Notes: generated by a model not told the origin, from the letters alone. A stretch of 64,000 bases of DNA from an uncultured Magnetococcales bacterium (GCA_964344355.1 CAYFNE010000003.1:3068-67067); one strand, 5' to 3'; shown: positions 5,429-63,466, counted from the stretch's first letter. Numbers and translations: made by a program.

Positions 5429-6886
5429 TCATGCTACCAACGAAAACAACGCCATCCGTTCCGTGACGCCTTTCAACGCCACATCGTCCAACTCTTTGAC
5501 CGGATAGCGTTTCTGAACCCGGGCAGCGACTTCTCCACTGAAAAGAATCGCCGGATTCGGCGCCTTGCAGTGGTTTTCGATCCGTGCCGCCACGTTGACG
5601 GTGTGGCCGATGACGGTGAATTCCAGACGGTTGGGGGCGCCGATGTAACCGGCTACCACCTCGCCGTAGTGGATGCCGATGCCGTTATCCAGGGGAGGCT
5701 CTCCCCGCGCCATTCGGGTTTGGTTCAAGGTCGCCAACCGTTGGCGCATGGCCAGGGCGGCGGTTACGGCGTCGGCGGCGGGGTTTTTTCGGTCGTCGGA
5801 CAGGCCGAAAACCGCCATGATGGCGTCGCCGATAAATTTATCGACCATGCCGCCATGCTGTTGGATGGCGGTCACCATCTCCTGGAAATAGGCGTTCAGC
5901 AGATCGGTCAACGCTTCCGGGGGCATGGTTTCCGACAGCGGGGTAAAGTTGCGCAGATCGGCGATCAATACCGCCACCTCGCGGCGTTGGCCGCCCATTT
6001 TGATCGTTTGTTGGCCATCGCCATAGGATCGAATGAACGAATCGGCCACCTCGGGGTTGACGAACCGGCCGAAGGCGTCGCGGATGCGTTCCCGTTGCGC
6101 CAACCCCTGGATCATGCCGTTGATGCCGCCGGCCACCCGGCCCAGTTCATCGCCACGGCTGGCATCCACCGACCGTTGAAAATCCCCTTCGCCGACCCGC
6201 TCCACCGTTTCCAGGAGACGATCACAATCCTTTTTCAGGGAGAGACCATACCGGCGCGACACCAGCAAGCTGGCCACCAGGAAACAAACCCCCAGGAACA
6301 ACACCTCGAAGGCGGCGGCCCGATCGGTGAATCCCTCGTAGACGAAGCGAAAACTCATCAACGACATCATCATCACCGGGATCAGGGTGAACAGGAAAAA
6401 TCCCTCCATCAGGCGACTGGCGATCCGTTCCAGGACCGGGCCGGCGCCGGTTTTTTGCAGTTGGCGAACTTTTTCCTCCAGCAACACATATTCCAGCTGG
6501 GAAAGAATGCCGGCCCCCAGTCCCCAATAACCGGACAACAGTTTCAAATGGCTCGACCAGTGAAAATCAGGGTAGAAAACCCCATGCAGGATCGACCCGG
6601 CCACCCCGGCCAACAGCCAGGAGAGCACCGAGAGAAAAAAACCGTGCCGGGCCAGGGTGACCGGTCGCACCGGTGCGGGAAACCGCTGATAGAGCCACTC
6701 CCGGACGCCGACCTGAACAATCCACACCGCCGTCAACCCGGCGATGATGCGTGGCAGGGAGAGGGTGTCGATGAACGGACAGACCACCTTGCCGTAAAAG
6801 CCGAGAAAAAAAACCGCCGTCGCCGTCAACAGGTGCAGGCGAACACGGGTGGATGTATCGATGTCGGCCAGGGTGATGGGGGTCAT
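5429..6886 (-). CDS. Membrane-bound class III adenylate/guanylate cyclase with multi-TM N-terminus and HAMP-like linker
   Basis: 485-aa ORF. Hydrophobic N-terminal half. Cyclase core: EVAVLIADLRNFTPLSE...MVDKFIGDAIMAVFG...GIHYGEVVAGYIGAPNRLEFTVIGHTVNVAARIE. Confidence 0.85.
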   Translation of the reverse strand: MTPITLADIDTSTRVRLHLLTATAVFFLGFYGKVVCPFIDTLSLPRIIAGLTAVWIVQVGVREWLYQRFPAPVRPVTLARHGFFLSVLSWLLAGVAGSILHGVFYPDFHWSSHLKLLSGYWGLGAGILSQLEYVLLEEKVRQLQKTGAGPVLERIASRLMEGFFLFTLIPVMMMSLMSFRFVYEGFTDRAAAFEVLFLGVCFLVASLLVSRRYGLSLKKDCDRLLETVERVGEGDFQRSVDASRGDELGRVAGGINGMIQGLAQRERIRDAFGRFVNPEVADSFIRSYGDGQQTIKMGGQRREVAVLIADLRNFTPLSETMPPEALTDLLNAYFQEMVTAIQQHGGMVDKFIGDAIMAVFGLSDDRKNPAADAVTAALAMRQRLATLNQTRMARGEPPLDNGIGIHYGEVVAGYIGAPNRLEFTVIGHTVNVAARIENHCKAPNPAILFSGEVAARVQKRYPVKELDDVALKGVTERMALFSLVA

Positions 6887-41077: not shown

Positions 41078-41334
41078 CCCTCTCCACCGGCCATTCCGTT
41101 CAGCAACCGGGAAGAGGAAAATCCATCCCGGGCCGGGGAGTGCGGGTTTCCCTCTTCCCGGTCCGGGCTCGCGAAAAGCTCCGCTTTTTGGCGATCCATT
41201 CAGGGACCGCACGAGACCGTCGAAAGGTTTTTCGCTGGCCGCCAAGAAACTCAGCCTTTACGCCGGAGCCACCCCGATCAAACGCATCCTCCCGGAAGTC
41301 GGCATCCACCCCATCGCCCCCGCTGGGCTGGCAT

Positions 41335-42819
41335 TCAATCATCCAACCAGCCATAATCTGAAAGAACCCCCGAGCCCGGTTTGATTATCCTGTCCAAAAG
41401 TCGTTTACGCTCAACCGACAATGTTCCTTCATCTCGCCATAGATTCTCAATCTGCTTACCTATCACAACGAGACCAACTTTAAATTGACCAGCCAATAAC
41501 TTCATACACTTTTCAAGTGAGGTTTTGTTGATCTTATCTGGAATGGTGAGTTGTATCTCTCTGCGTGGTGCAAGAAACTCAGCGGCAAAGGCATTGGCTC
41601 GTTTTTCGACAAGTGCGGGCATTTTCCCCCCAAGAATATCCATATGTGGAACCGCATGGTCTGTATCAACCAGCAAATGGGCCATCTCGTGTGCCAGTGT
41701 TGTCCGTTCCCCCCAGCTTTTTTGGGCATGGGTGCCTGTCTTGTTGACCAGAACGCCGCTCTTTTCGGAGTCCCAGCACGCTATGGCATCAATCGTTGTA
41801 GGAAGTTTTTTCGTATTGACGACCGATACCCCCCAACCAGCCAAAATTTCTTTTGGTTTCACTTGTTGGTCATTCTGGATATTCAATTTTCTTCTCAACC
41901 AACGGGCCAGTAGATATCCTTGTTTATAGTGCTTTATGTTGGGCTCATGCGCCAAGATGCGTTCAAGCTCCTTTTCCGCTTTTTTTCGGAGCATGAGGAA
42001 TGATTTAAAAAAAGGCTCCATTTTTATTCTGTTAATGCGACCTATGACTTGCAGAATCTCCTCATTATCCAGACAGTGCTGAGTCATTCGAGCGGCTATC
42101 AATGGTCGTGTTGGTTCTTCCAATGAGATGGGGCCAAACATGGTTTCAAGTTCTTCATCATTGACCGCAATTGCCCGCAATCTTTCAATCGAAACACCGA
42201 TTGAAAGAGCATACCCTTCGGCACCGGTAGGAATGGCATTGCGATTTTGCCAATTTTCCAGAATGATCTTTCCCCGTGCTGAATTCGGGTGGACGGCATC
42301 GGCAATTTTTTCTCCAATGTGTTCCAGCACCGCCATTGCTTGGGAGTGTTCCATGCGCACATCCATATTTTCCGCCACGATCCGCATATCCCTGCCTTCG
42401 CGTAGTAAAAATACGGGAGAAAGCAGAATATCCGGCATGGCGGCGGCCAAATTGTGCCGTTCCCAAAACGCAATGACTTTGTACTCCTCCACATTGAACT
42501 CATTTTCCCCAAGTTCCATTCTTCCAAGCTCTTGCATGGCCTCGGTCATGAACTCAGCTGGAGATTTCGGATTGCAAAAAAATGGATATGGATCTTCGAT
42601 CCGCAGAAAGTGCCAGCTTTTTGCCAGATGATCCAAGAGAGCATCCCAGTAGTCTTCGATTCCTTCGACGGAATCGCTCTCCTCATCACTCCAGATCTCC
42701 CGATCATTCACCCTAAGAGTCAACTTGCCATGCCCGGAAAACATGGGAATTTTCCCATTGTCAGTCGACTTTACGGGTGAAAATTCAAATTTCATTATAT
42801 TGCTCATGAAATCAACCAT
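41335..42819 (-). CDS. 494-aa protein: unknown acidic N-terminal ~300 aa fused to a C-terminal ImmA/IrrE-type (COG2856, M78-like) zinc metallopeptidase
   Basis: TTLAHEMAHLLVDTDHAVPHMD...KRANAFAAEFLAPRRE; HEMAH is encoded at 41677-41691. Counted lines are low GC (33-52%). Candidate starts are ATG at 42819, 42807 or 42795, overlapping or abutting the upstream stop. Confidence 0.8.
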   Translation of the reverse strand: MVDFMSNIMKFEFSPVKSTDNGKIPMFSGHGKLTLRVNDREIWSDEESDSVEGIEDYWDALLDHLAKSWHFLRIEDPYPFFCNPKSPAEFMTEAMQELGRMELGENEFNVEEYKVIAFWERHNLAAAMPDILLSPVFLLREGRDMRIVAENMDVRMEHSQAMAVLEHIGEKIADAVHPNSARGKIILENWQNRNAIPTGAEGYALSIGVSIERLRAIAVNDEELETMFGPISLEEPTRPLIAARMTQHCLDNEEILQVIGRINRIKMEPFFKSFLMLRKKAEKELERILAHEPNIKHYKQGYLLARWLRRKLNIQNDQQVKPKEILAGWGVSVVNTKKLPTTIDAIACWDSEKSGVLVNKTGTHAQKSWGERTTLAHEMAHLLVDTDHAVPHMDILGGKMPALVEKRANAFAAEFLAPRREIQLTIPDKINKTSLEKCMKLLAGQFKVGLVVIGKQIENLWRDEGTLSVERKRLLDRIIKPGSGVLSDYGWLDD

Positions 42820-43252
42820 TCCGAGGTTTGTATCTCAGGTTGTTCCATCCTTCGGGAAGACGACTCTTGGCCCATTTTTTAAACAGACGAAACTCCCCTT
42901 TTTTATCGGCACGATCGGCCAGTTCCTCCAACACATAGCCCGGAACTTTTCCTCCGGTAGCTTCGCTTTCCGGAAATCCGTGATAGGATTTTCCCGGTTC
43001 GGTGATTTCGGCTCGATAGACGACGCCCTGATGCACGTTATAAATCCTGTCGGGGGGCTCCGTGTTGGGGGGATAGGATATGCCATTCCGAAGAATCTGT
43101 CTGGCCAACCCAGTTGTATTGGTAATGGAAGTCGGGCATTGTCCCCGACCGTTCTTTCCCTCGGGCTGGAATCCAGCTTCGTCTCGATTCCATTTATGTT
43201 TAAACCGCTTTTCTCCAGGTTCGTACTCATAATCAAGAGGCATGGCAATCAC
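42812..43252 (-). CDS. 146-aa basic protein, toxin-like (possible RNase-type toxin domain); family not identified
   Basis: MIAMPLDYEYEPGEKRFKHKWNRDEAGFQPEGKNGRGQCPTSITNTTGLARQILRNGISYPPNTEPPDRIYNVHQGVVYRAEITEPGKSYHGFPES...VPGYVLEELADRADKKGEFRLFKKW. Low GC. Overlaps the downstream ORF by 8 nt. No signal peptide. Confidence 0.6.
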   Translation of the reverse strand: MIAMPLDYEYEPGEKRFKHKWNRDEAGFQPEGKNGRGQCPTSITNTTGLARQILRNGISYPPNTEPPDRIYNVHQGVVYRAEITEPGKSYHGFPESEATGGKVPGYVLEELADRADKKGEFRLFKKWAKSRLPEGWNNLRYKPRNG

Positions 43253-43398
43253 ATTTGGTTAAAGCTGAAAATACTACTTTTCATTGCAGAGCCCCCATCC
43301 TCCACAACCGCGCGCCAGTTGGCTGAAAGATTTATCAGCGCGGCGTGTTCTCCCGGGCTGGTGGCAGCAAACCGGGAAGCGTCCTATCGCAGCCATTC

Positions 43399-43472
43399 GG
43401 CGGGGAGGTAGCCCCGCCTTACCGGCGGGGACGCAAACCCCGCCCTACCGTAGCGGCTCGCTCCTTAGCGAG
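43399..43472. repeat. Cluster of three GC-rich hairpins, REP/BIME-like: two tandem GGCGGGG-N6/7-CCCCGCC units plus ctcgct-cctt-agcgag
   Basis: GGCGGGG at 43399-43405 and 43424-43430; CCCCGCC at 43412-43418 and 43438-43444; each unit is followed by (t/c)tacc. The third hairpin is at 43457-43472. Confidence 0.7.
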
Positions 43473-43537: not shown

Positions 43538-43882
43538 TCAGCGTTTGCCGCTTCGCGCCAGTTCGGACTGGAGGTTGCTCTGTTTGCGTTCCGCCAGCCG
43601 CCGGCGGGCACTCCGGGTATATTCCTGCCGCTGCTGCTCGGAATGCATCTGTTTCATGAGTTCCTTTTTCTCGGCGATATTGACGAAATACATCATGCCG
43701 CTGCCGATGATCACCAGGAAGGCGAAGATCCCCCCCCAGACCAGCATGAATTTTTTCGCTTCATCGACATCCTTCCTGGCGACCGTCGCCCGGTTCCGGG
43801 GACGTTCATAGTCCCTGTCCCGTCGGTCTCTTTCCTTGGGTTCATCGATATCATCAAAGTCTTTGTCATCAATATCCATCAT
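43538..43882 (-). CDS. Small single-pass membrane protein with highly charged flanks (114 aa), hypothetical
   Basis: MMDIDDKDFDDIDEPKERDRRDRDYERPRNR...FMLVWGGIFAFLVIIGSGMMYFV...; one predicted TM helix. No family recognised. Confidence 0.5.
   Translation of the reverse strand: MMDIDDKDFDDIDEPKERDRRDRDYERPRNRATVARKDVDEAKKFMLVWGGIFAFLVIIGSGMMYFVNIAEKKELMKQMHSEQQRQEYTRSARRRLAERKQSNLQSELARSGKR

Positions 43883-63391: not shown

Positions 63392-63466
<75 letters not shown>

Follow-up and report, generated by a model that had tools for sequence, protein, structure and literature searches.

A horizontally acquired gene pair that joins a predicted BECR-Tox2-like RNase to an ImmA/IrrE peptidase fusion is a candidate toxin-antitoxin module

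Introduction

What does a gene pair do for its host when a small basic protein is encoded directly ahead of a zinc peptidase that is fused to a large acidic domain? The question is raised by a 64,000-nucleotide (nt) stretch of DNA from an uncultured Magnetococcales bacterium (GCA_964344355.1, CAYFNE010000003.1:3068-67067), which as a whole is called the window here. On the minus strand of the window, positions 41335 to 43252 hold a gene for a small protein of 146 amino acids (aa) and, downstream of it, a gene for a large protein of 494 aa that ends in an ImmA/IrrE metallopeptidase domain. An earlier note on this DNA, made from the sequence alone, had proposed the pair as a candidate new toxin-antitoxin or anti-phage module. 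On balance, and by a modest degree, the analysis described here favours the view that the pair is a self-contained, horizontally mobile, toxin-first and Rosmer-like module of the toxin-antitoxin or abortive-infection kind, in which an RNase effector would be combined with a neutraliser that carries a trigger protease.

Peptidases of this type are known from several regulatory and defence systems. ImmA, IrrE and CapP are reported to cleave the product of a neighbouring gene on a signal (PMC2701414; PMC12828697; PMC13228613). In RosmerTA and node D25 of NetFlax, antitoxins with an ImmA-type protease occur with varied toxins, the toxin gene comes first in 58% of cases, and several members defend against phage (PMC10440598). 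Two further protein groups matter for the small protein. In NsnC, the effector of the Menshen system, an N-terminal PIN-like domain is followed by a C-terminal nuclease that is polymorphic and usually a BECR RNase (PMC12065111). BECR-Tox2-like proteins are defined by a core of one helix and four strands, a conserved, unstructured N-terminal extension that bears a KH motif, and a second histidine near the start of strand beta4, adjoining the histidine of the KH motif. Their members are mostly C-termini of NsnC proteins, some occur in polymorphic-toxin loci, and one BECR-Tox2 member, toxic in Escherichia coli, has a small immunity protein that neutralises it (bioRxiv 10.64898/2026.08.28.747851).

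Results

The two genes are linked across bacterial phyla

Both genes are real, since both products have strong homologues and their pairing is conserved. Homologues reach E-values of 1e-49 for the small and 7e-150 for the large protein, and full-length relatives of the latter (about 480 aa) are spread across phyla well beyond the Magnetococcales. The linkage was counted in both directions. Full-length homologues of the large gene with sufficient DNA ahead of them were available at 51 loci. At 43 of these, the gene just upstream, in the same orientation, belongs to the small family, and its stop codon falls between -34 and +16 nt relative to the projected start of the large gene. In the other direction, loci were found from the motif of the small protein, using a narrower alignment, and in all 15 metagenomic or viral loci with downstream DNA the peptidase-bearing large gene followed directly. 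Coupling, as described in the earlier note, and co-occurrence of the two genes, for which it had advised a survey, both extend across phyla. The lineages concerned include Alpha-, Beta- and Gammaproteobacteria, Magnetococcales, Myxococcota, Planctomycetota, Chlorobiota, Acidimicrobiia, Latescibacterota, Hydrogenedentota and others; the small family is known from at least eight phyla and also from plasmids. On plasmids of Agrobacterium and Thiodictyon, the pair lies beside VapC/Phd and MazEF genes, and the RefSeq annotation has the two genes overlap by 4 nt, under the names 'hypothetical protein' and 'ImmA/IrrE family metallo-endopeptidase'. Even in a divergent branch of the large family (locus L069), the upstream open reading frame (ORF) encodes a distant homologue of the small protein (hhalign probability 97%).

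The eight departures from this arrangement are instructive. In the chromosome of Ectothiorhodospira shaposhnikovii (L017, about positions 5760-5860 of the locus), the small gene is reduced to its C-terminal hairpin (PLPPRIVRELRRRAELEGYVKEFEKWLNTYG, E 9e-7); this remnant follows a fragment of a sugar-nucleotide enzyme gene and lies directly upstream of an intact large gene. A weaker, non-significant trace of the small gene is present upstream of the large gene at L028. The large gene is solitary at L019, and it is likewise intact and without a small gene at L036 and L048. The upstream ORF at L048 had been guessed to encode a GNAT toxin, which was not confirmed by Pfam. In Thiohalocapsa sp. ML1 (L032, 5340-7392), the position of the small gene is occupied by a toxin gene of the RelE family (PF06296, E 2e-49). 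At two other loci (L030, 5010-7374, and L051, 4928-7218), the upstream ORF belongs to a different family of about 150-165 aa (pairwise E 2e-4, no Pfam match), and the large-family proteins of these loci, as well as P0070, have an extra N-terminal extension of about 150 aa, which suggests that the toxin was swapped along with a matching adaptor. The small gene was never seen alone; the large gene was seen alone, beside a decayed small gene, or behind another toxin-like gene. Such a pattern would be expected if the two were a toxin and a hub antitoxin.

As a side observation, the open frame of the large protein at L032 runs about 74 aa further upstream. The additional stretch presumably resembles the N-terminus of the COG2944-type antitoxins that pair with this RelE family. 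Either a gene fusion or the insertion of the large gene into a pre-existing toxin-antitoxin locus could account for this.

The gene junction suggests translational coupling

In the window, the ORFs, the stop/start junction and the three ATG codons within it are exactly where the earlier note had placed them. The small gene extends on the minus strand from a GTG start codon at 43252 to a TGA stop codon at 42814-42812 (42812-43252). An in-frame ATG at 43243 would give a 143-aa protein beginning MPLDYEY, the position at which the homologues begin, and judged from this alignment it is probably the true start. The large gene (41335-42819, minus strand) ends with a stop codon at 41337-41335. The junction (42793-42819, minus strand) contains the stop codon of the small gene and in-frame ATG codons at 42819, 42807 and 42795, which correspond to an 8-nt overlap, a 4-nt gap and a 16-nt gap, respectively. 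The last of these starts, which shortens the product to 486 aa, is used for a database copy of the large protein (P0017) that is 100% identical; the alignment of homologues did not decide between the three. No clear or strong Shine-Dalgarno sequence precedes any of them, and it is therefore likely that the large protein is made by translational coupling to the small gene, through termination and re-initiation. In the region upstream of the small gene, neither a consensus promoter on the minus strand nor clear operator-like repeats were found.

The small protein is a predicted BECR-Tox2-like RNase

The small protein is basic, with 24 lysine and arginine against 19 aspartate and glutamate residues, as had been counted before, and an isoelectric point (pI) of 9.3. 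The motifs GRGQCP, RIYNV.QGVVYRA, KSYHGFP and VPGYVLEEL, which had been read from its sequence, are all present, as is the HEMAH site of the large protein. According to an exhaustive profile search, the family comprises about 300 clusters at 50% identity. Nearly all members are stand-alone proteins of 125-190 aa rather than C-terminal domains of large polymorphic toxins, and 81% of them are net basic. Three database entries deserve a separate comment. P0105, a cysteine-rich repeat protein of 2,839 aa with 25 stretches matched to the family profile, is almost certainly a repeat-driven artefact. P0118, in which a P-loop-like N-terminal region is joined to the C-terminal half of the small protein, and P0219, in which a small-family protein is joined straight to a peptidase domain, look like chimeric or frameshifted calls.

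The AlphaFold2 model of the small protein has a mean predicted local distance difference test score (pLDDT) of 81 and a predicted template-modelling score (pTM) of 0.78, and it consists of three parts. The N-terminal extension (residues 4-48; 43109-43243, minus strand) has little predicted secondary structure, with pLDDT values of 59-69 for residues 1-40, and contains Y10, the K18-H19 motif (codons at 43201-43196) and C39 (43138-43136). The predicted BECR core (residues 49-94; 42971-43108, minus strand) is made up of one helix (49-55) and four strands (58-60, 69-74, 77-85 and 89-94), with pLDDT values of 79-93. H91 (codon at 42982-42980) is the third residue of the fourth strand. In the model, the small protein thus carries the features published for BECR-Tox2-like proteins, namely a helix and four strands, an extension with a KH motif, and a histidine near the start of beta4. 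The residues in question are well conserved: among 111 sequences of the family, C39 is invariant (111), Y10 and H91 are kept in 109, H19 in 108 and K18 in 101, and G76, Y79, H91 and P94 are kept in 106-110.

A homology to Menshen effectors points in the same direction. When the 111 family members were scanned with PADLOC, four NsnC models were matched, by 24, 9, 5 and 2 members, with a best E-value of 3.5e-8. The matches cover the last 70-100 positions of models of about 270 positions, which is the effector end; for example, residues 13-111 of P0113 align with positions 175-271 of a 274-position model. The alignment spans the predicted BECR core, and the small protein has no PIN-like domain. 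At the level of the family, these matches to PADLOC models make the small protein a probable stand-alone relative of the NsnC C-terminal effector domain. A profile search with the 111 sequences for long NsnC-like proteins returned, among the matches listed, only stand-alone small proteins. The family profile found no match among PDB sequences, neither the small protein nor its family matched a helix-turn-helix (HTH) family, and the small protein matched neither the HigB nor the RelE families of Pfam. The earlier note had pointed to a resemblance to RNase-type toxin domains of polymorphic-toxin loci. This comparison is supported by the NsnC matches in relatives and by the BECR-Tox2-like features; BECR-Tox2-like proteins also occur in polymorphic-toxin loci. 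We infer that the small protein is a BECR-Tox2-like RNase toxin, with RNase activity and toxicity as predicted properties.

The third part, a basic C-terminal helical hairpin (residues 99-140; 42833-42958, minus strand), follows the pattern P-x6-L-x3-A-x3-G-x7-W. Its helices (105-117 and 121-131) are predicted with pLDDT values above 90, its pI is 10.1, and P104, A115, G119 and W127 are conserved in the family. The hairpin is specific to the family and falls at or past the end of the NsnC models, which makes it a candidate docking or cleavage element for the large protein. A possible assignment as a ribbon-helix-helix (RHH) domain was considered and is kept only as a very unlikely alternative. 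Among 52 C-terminal segments, there were matches to the RHH-clan Pfam families FitA-like_RHH (7), Arc (5) and RHH_5 (4), with a best E-value of 0.0013; these weak matches span profile positions 6-28 only, a first-helix motif, and none reaches a curated cut-off. A PDB profile search with the C-terminus of the small protein returned designed repeats and a haemagglutinin, and no RHH protein.

The large protein joins an acidic domain to an intact M78 peptidase

The large protein was modelled on the basis of 45 homologues, with a pLDDT of 92.6 and a pTM of 0.90. Its N-terminal domain of about 295 aa (41935-42819, minus strand) is acidic and conserved. Residues 1-290 contain 50 aspartate and glutamate against 33 lysine and arginine residues (pI 5.0), and the domain is net negative in 45 of 45 members of the large family, with a mean charge of -14. 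The two products of the pair are therefore complementary in charge. Conserved positions of the domain include W43, W69, P79, F118, H122, R140, G142, W190, R193 and the AARM motif at 242-245. The earlier note had recognised nothing in this part, and the approximately 290 residues found no match in Pfam, NCBIfam, PHROGs, PDB folds (searched with Foldseek) or PDB sequences (profile search). The earlier note had also seen no convincing Xre-type HTH, and indeed the large protein matched no HTH family of Pfam at E<=1. A hidden or degenerate Xre HTH at residues of about 181-228 was considered separately, and neither Pfam nor a PDB profile search with residues 158-300 gave any indication of it.

The C-terminal part is an ImmA/IrrE domain (M78, COG2856; 41380-41934, minus strand), in agreement with the earlier assignment. 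It contains the motifs TLAHEMAHLLVD (H377-E378-x-x-H381; HEMAH at 41691-41677) and KRANAFAAEFLAPRRE, with E405 (codon at 41607-41605) just ahead of the latter. Among the 45 homologues, E405, the third zinc ligand, is invariant, and H377, E378 and H381 are at least 90% conserved. The Pfam family Peptidase_M78 (PF06114) matches residues 353-456 with 27.3 bits against a curated cut-off of 22. Going by these residues, the zinc site of an M78 peptidase is intact, and cleavage of a protein on a signal is its predicted function.

Comparisons with known systems consistently stop at the boundary of the peptidase part. The PADLOC models for RmrA match at E 1.9e-12, at residues of about 282-455 only and from model position of about 123 onward; the PD-Lambda-2_B model (E 2.5e-7) and the capP model likewise cover the peptidase part only. 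An NCBIfam model for the spr1629 antitoxin and a PHROG family of 'transcriptional regulators' match only from about residue 280 on. Foldseek finds CapP (7t5t, probability 1.00, E 6e-3) and IrrE (3dti, probability 0.97), again for the peptidase part, and a PDB sequence-profile search finds IrrE at 3e-4. The model of the small protein gave no significant structural match with Foldseek, and the small protein of the window matched no PADLOC model. A further PDB entry, 9vzy_A, matches the peptidase part at E 4.6e-4. It is the solved structure of a 393-aa 'HTH cro/C1-type domain-containing protein', and may be the structure of an RmrA-like Xre-peptidase antitoxin.

The pair occupies an islet of foreign DNA

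The two genes, and only these, lie in an islet of low guanine-plus-cytosine (GC) content (41300-43300) between a fabD-like gene and genes for a GGDEF protein and a histidine kinase. The GC content is 0.472 over this interval and about 0.60 in the flanks, and at third codon positions it is 0.48-0.49 in both genes as opposed to 0.72-0.77 in the neighbouring fabD-like, pepN and GGDEF genes. The cassette of about 2 kilobases is thus horizontally acquired foreign DNA. In the public copy of the contig, which belongs to a Magnetococcales metagenome-assembled genome, the pair is surrounded by genes for CHASE2 histidine kinases, response regulators and a GGDEF regulator, and by fabD, pepN and metG. There are no genes of phages or of integrative and conjugative elements (ICEs) among these neighbours. 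At the islet itself, neither an integrase, an adjacent tRNA, a target-site duplication nor a convincing flanking direct repeat was found; the sole tRNA is located at position 63392 of the window.

Some features near the borders of the islet were recorded. On the upstream side, a minus-strand ORF of 114 aa (43538-43882) has a host-like GC content and encodes a protein whose N-terminus is highly charged (MMDIDDKDFDDIDEPKERDRRDRDYERPR...) and which contains a single hydrophobic helix. No Pfam match is recorded for it in the public contig, and it is not kept beside the pair at other loci. Just downstream of this ORF, and upstream of the cassette, two tandem GC-rich hairpins (43396-43452; stems GGCGGGG/CCCCGCC, 25-26 nt apart) lie near the boundary between high and low GC content; they resemble repetitive extragenic palindromes or terminators. 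On the other side, a long inverted repeat at 41103-41190 (AACCGGGAAGAGGAAA ... TTTCCCTCTTCCCGGT) and then a second terminator-like hairpin follow the fabD-like gene, with about 150 nt of host-like GC content between the repeats and the stop codon of the large gene.

The neighbourhood differs from locus to locus. A survey of 134 neighbouring ORFs, taken from 22 loci, revealed no conserved third gene. Individual pairs lie beside an integrase, IS21, a cluster of helicase, DUF87 and methylase genes and a PIN gene, or beside Bro-N; restriction-like genes also occur near the pair, and in Pseudomonas graminis the pair is situated within an island of unannotated genes. One contig of IMG/VR carries the pair. 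A tblastn search of plasmids with the N-terminal domain, which has low sensitivity at this divergence, gave no match. Genes for UDP-glucose or GDP-mannose dehydrogenases account for 5 of the 134 neighbouring ORFs (at L020, L024, L043 and other loci). In related Gammaproteobacteria the pair may recurrently occupy regions for polysaccharide synthesis, unless these loci descend from a single ancestral insertion. On a metagenome contig of the Joint Genome Institute (L087, 7591-17440), the pair is located 19 nt upstream, on the same strand, of genes for DUF2397, DUF2398, SbcC_Walker_B and DUF3323/DUF2399. We take this operon to be Wadjet-like, going by the Wadjet Pfam set (Doron et al. 2018); it might be co-transcribed with the pair.

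Discussion

How the pair would work

In the reading that we moderately favour, the small protein would be the effector, a BECR-fold RNase of the BECR-Tox2-like kind, with a candidate active site that combines the KH motif of the extension with H91, near the beginning of the fourth strand. The acidic N-terminal domain of the large protein would bind and silence the basic RNase, probably by gripping its hairpin. The M78 zinc peptidase would be the switch and would act when stress or infection is signalled, as is the case for ImmA, IrrE and CapP. Once activated, it would cut the neutralising domain or the interface between toxin and antitoxin, so that the RNase is freed and translation stops. Candidate cleavage targets are the N-terminal domain of the large protein itself, the interface, or the hairpin of the toxin. 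The structure and linkage of the genes, their foreign origin, the intact peptidase site, the BECR-Tox2-like features, the family-level homology to the C-terminal part of NsnC and the opposite charges of the partners come from computation; RNase activity, toxicity, the direction of neutralisation, the target of the peptidase, its trigger and a role against phages are suggested by the comparison with better-studied systems.

Several results weigh against this reading. The small protein of the window by itself has no match in Pfam, NCBIfam, PADLOC or PHROGs, and the link to NsnC is made via its relatives. The model of the small protein found nothing significant in PDB and BFVD with Foldseek (best E 0.15), and a match to RelE1 (9g12_B) is likewise non-significant, with an E-value of 2.8 and a template-modelling score of 0.38. 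Alignment of the small family by hhalign with single sequences of YafQ and of the RelE protein of L032 gave probabilities below 1%. Defence-related neighbours (mad3, AriA, AbiEi, AbiLi, PtuA, and HEC and PDC candidates) are scattered, and there is no background rate with which they could be compared. A tblastn search of the 50,697 phage genomes in GenBank with the N-terminal domain and a small-family member found no match, at a low sensitivity for this degree of divergence. Finally, in PD-lambda-2, which consists of a HigB-like gene, an Xre-peptidase fusion and a third gene, it is the fusion that is toxic and the upstream gene that rescues (PMC9519451).

Other explanations

PD-lambda-2 is the precedent for a reversal of roles, and its architecture matches in that a BECR-superfamily gene precedes a peptidase fusion. 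If it were followed here, the large protein would inhibit growth, for example by cleaving an essential host protein, and the small protein would restrain it, using its RNase-like site for binding or for a second activity. The PD-Lambda-2_B model does match the peptidase part, COG2856 was first listed as a predicted toxin by Makarova et al. 2009, and the hairpin that is all that L017 keeps of the small gene could be a minimal inhibitor. However, the intact large genes without a small gene (L019, L036 and L048) are hard to square with intrinsic toxicity, and a small gene on its own was never found. Conservation of 91-98% at K18, H19 and H91, the candidate catalytic residues, would be unexpected in a mere inhibitor, and the toxicity of the PD-lambda-2 B protein was seen on over-expression, in a system with a third component that is absent here. 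Although the identity of the toxic partner is argued from comparison, we consider the reversal of roles unlikely. The small protein could instead be an inactive or weakly active pro-toxin that is checked by its own hairpin or extension, and the large protein, rather than an antitoxin, a sensor-activator whose peptidase clips it once the N-terminal domain has sensed infection. Against this, the tight translational coupling and the absence of orphaned small genes fit a need for stoichiometric protection. The small gene has decayed where the large one was kept, which is what usually befalls a toxin, and a uniformly acidic domain opposite a basic RNase looks like an inhibitor. Activation by proteolysis is improbable to our mind, even though ImmA, IrrE and CapP cleave the product of a neighbouring gene, which here is the small protein. 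It would also agree with the strict conservation of the peptidase site, with a hairpin that is family-specific and missing from NsnC effectors, and with a pTM of 0.90, which suggests that the N-terminal domain packs on the peptidase like a regulatory domain.

Two further explanations were considered. The pair might be a transcriptional switch of the ImmR/ImmA, DdrO/IrrE or CapH/CapP type, with the small protein as an RHH repressor that binds through its hairpin, is cleaved by the peptidase and so derepresses itself or its neighbours. The weak C-terminal matches to three RHH-clan families and the position of the L087 pair, which precedes a Wadjet-like operon of the same orientation by 19 nt, would be in line with this. 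Yet the RHH matches are confined to the first helix and stay below curated cut-offs, the PDB profile search yielded no RHH protein, and in the model (pTM 0.78) the hairpin appears packed on the sheet in a single compact domain. Outside the hairpin, the small protein shows homology to a nuclease effector domain; conserved cargo genes are absent, the islet holds only the pair, and no clear operator-like repeat was seen upstream. A switch of this kind is very unlikely. That the pair is an ordinary switch for lysogeny or excision, carried by a prophage or integrative element, is hardly credible; the earlier note had named a lysogeny switch in a prophage among the outcomes that would speak against its proposal. 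The window flanks are housekeeping and signalling genes (pepN, fabD, metG, a GGDEF regulator and histidine kinases) without phage or ICE genes, no Xre repressor partner is present, the 50,697 phage genomes gave no match in the tblastn search of low sensitivity, and the neighbours are heterogeneous from locus to locus. What such a switch has in its favour is that ImmA-type peptidases are common in prophages and ICEs, that one IMG/VR contig carries the pair, and that some loci are near integrases or Bro-N genes.

The favoured reading, an RNase toxin restrained by a protease-bearing antitoxin, has a bolder version. In this version, the pair would be an abortive-infection system on a new principle: the N-terminal domain would be both a sensor and a clamp on the hairpin of a Menshen-type RNase, and a phage-triggered protease, without any DNA-binding repressor, would cut the clamp or the hairpin and free the RNase. 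We regard this version as rather doubtful.

Relation to known systems

Of the known systems, RosmerTA and NetFlax D25 share with the pair a two-gene organisation that is often toxin-first, a protein with an ImmA/IrrE zinc peptidase as antitoxin (the predicted role in the pair), and a variable toxin. Partner swapping is common to them as well, as seen here in the RelE gene of L032 and in the other toxin-like family of L030 and L051. The differences concern both genes. RmrA has a small N-terminal Xre HTH, and the large protein has an acidic non-HTH domain of about 290 aa instead. No RmrT model was matched by the small protein of the window or by any of the 111 small-family members, and the studied toxin of phage Kita depolarises membranes (PMC10440598), unlike the predicted RNase here. 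The comparison with Rosmer drawn in the earlier note is thus apt as an analogy, but membership by the usual standard fails, as there is neither an HTH nor RmrT, and the RmrA match is limited to the peptidase part.

PD-lambda-2 (Vassallo et al. 2022), which gives defence by abortive infection, is the closest tested relative by architecture, with a small gene of the BECR superfamily (HigB-like) upstream of an ImmA/IrrE fusion. Its B protein, however, has an Xre HTH, whereas the large protein has no detectable HTH, and a third, P4-antitoxin-like gene is needed for defence there, whereas no third gene is conserved here. The RelE/PIN and Xre-COG2856 operons described in 2009, which occur on plasmids and in prophages and islands, also combine a nuclease toxin with a COG2856 zincin protease fusion (PMC2701414). 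They encode an Xre HTH and canonical RelE or PIN toxins, neither of which is present in the pair.

The Menshen effector NsnC has an effector end that is homologous to the core of the small protein, but NsnA (ParB-DUF262), NsnB (ABC ATPase/DUF3696) and the inPIN domain are all missing, and neither ParB nor DUF262 is among the 25 most frequent families listed for the 134 neighbouring ORFs. BECR-Tox2 has the same signature of a KH motif and a histidine and is neutralised by a dedicated partner, BECR-Imm2. Here the partner is a protease fusion of 490 aa and not a small immunity protein, and the predicted toxin has an additional C-terminal hairpin. The pairs CapH/CapP, ImmR/ImmA and DdrO/IrrE have the same peptidase fold, joined to a regulatory domain and encoded beside the presumed substrate. 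Their partner is an Xre repressor of other genes, in contrast to the nuclease-like partner without conserved cargo that is found here, and they have C-terminal GAF-like domains, whereas the accessory domain of the large protein is N-terminal and unrelated.

Since it lacks a tested defining feature of each, the pair can be set apart from Rosmer, PD-lambda-2, Menshen and the repressor-protease switches. Our literature searches found no description of this gene pair, no peptidase partner is mentioned in the literature on BECR RNases that we consulted, and no 'stand-alone' occurrence turned up in the Menshen paper (PMC12065111). The earlier note had called the layout apparently undescribed. This holds for the pair as such, but a toxin gene followed by a COG2856 protease fusion is a general layout that was described as early as 2009 (PMC2701414), so that the novelty is that of a variant and not of a category. 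New is the combination of a BECR-Tox2-like RNase with an ImmA-type partner that lacks an HTH and bears the N-terminal domain.

Implications

The pair is widespread and has gone unannotated, in that Pfam, NCBIfam and PADLOC leave the small protein and the N-terminal domain unnamed. Models of both proteins would let annotation and defence-finder pipelines recognise it. The N-terminal domain is a new candidate for a neutralising or sensing domain. More generally, the pair bears on what ImmA-type proteases do in Rosmer, PD-lambda-2 and similar toxin-antitoxin or defence modules. Because there is no detectable HTH, the protease cannot act on a fused repressor, which isolates the relationship between protease and toxin and should make the pair a clean experimental model.

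The pair also connects the effector repertoire of Menshen and polymorphic toxins, that is the BECR-Tox2-like RNases, to protease-linked toxin-antitoxin systems. Its interest will grow if the protease proves to gate the RNase directly. If the version with a sensor and clamp is true, the pair would be a protease-gated RNase effector, and NsnC-type effector domains would circulate as free modules among Menshen, polymorphic toxins and protease-gated toxin-antitoxin systems.

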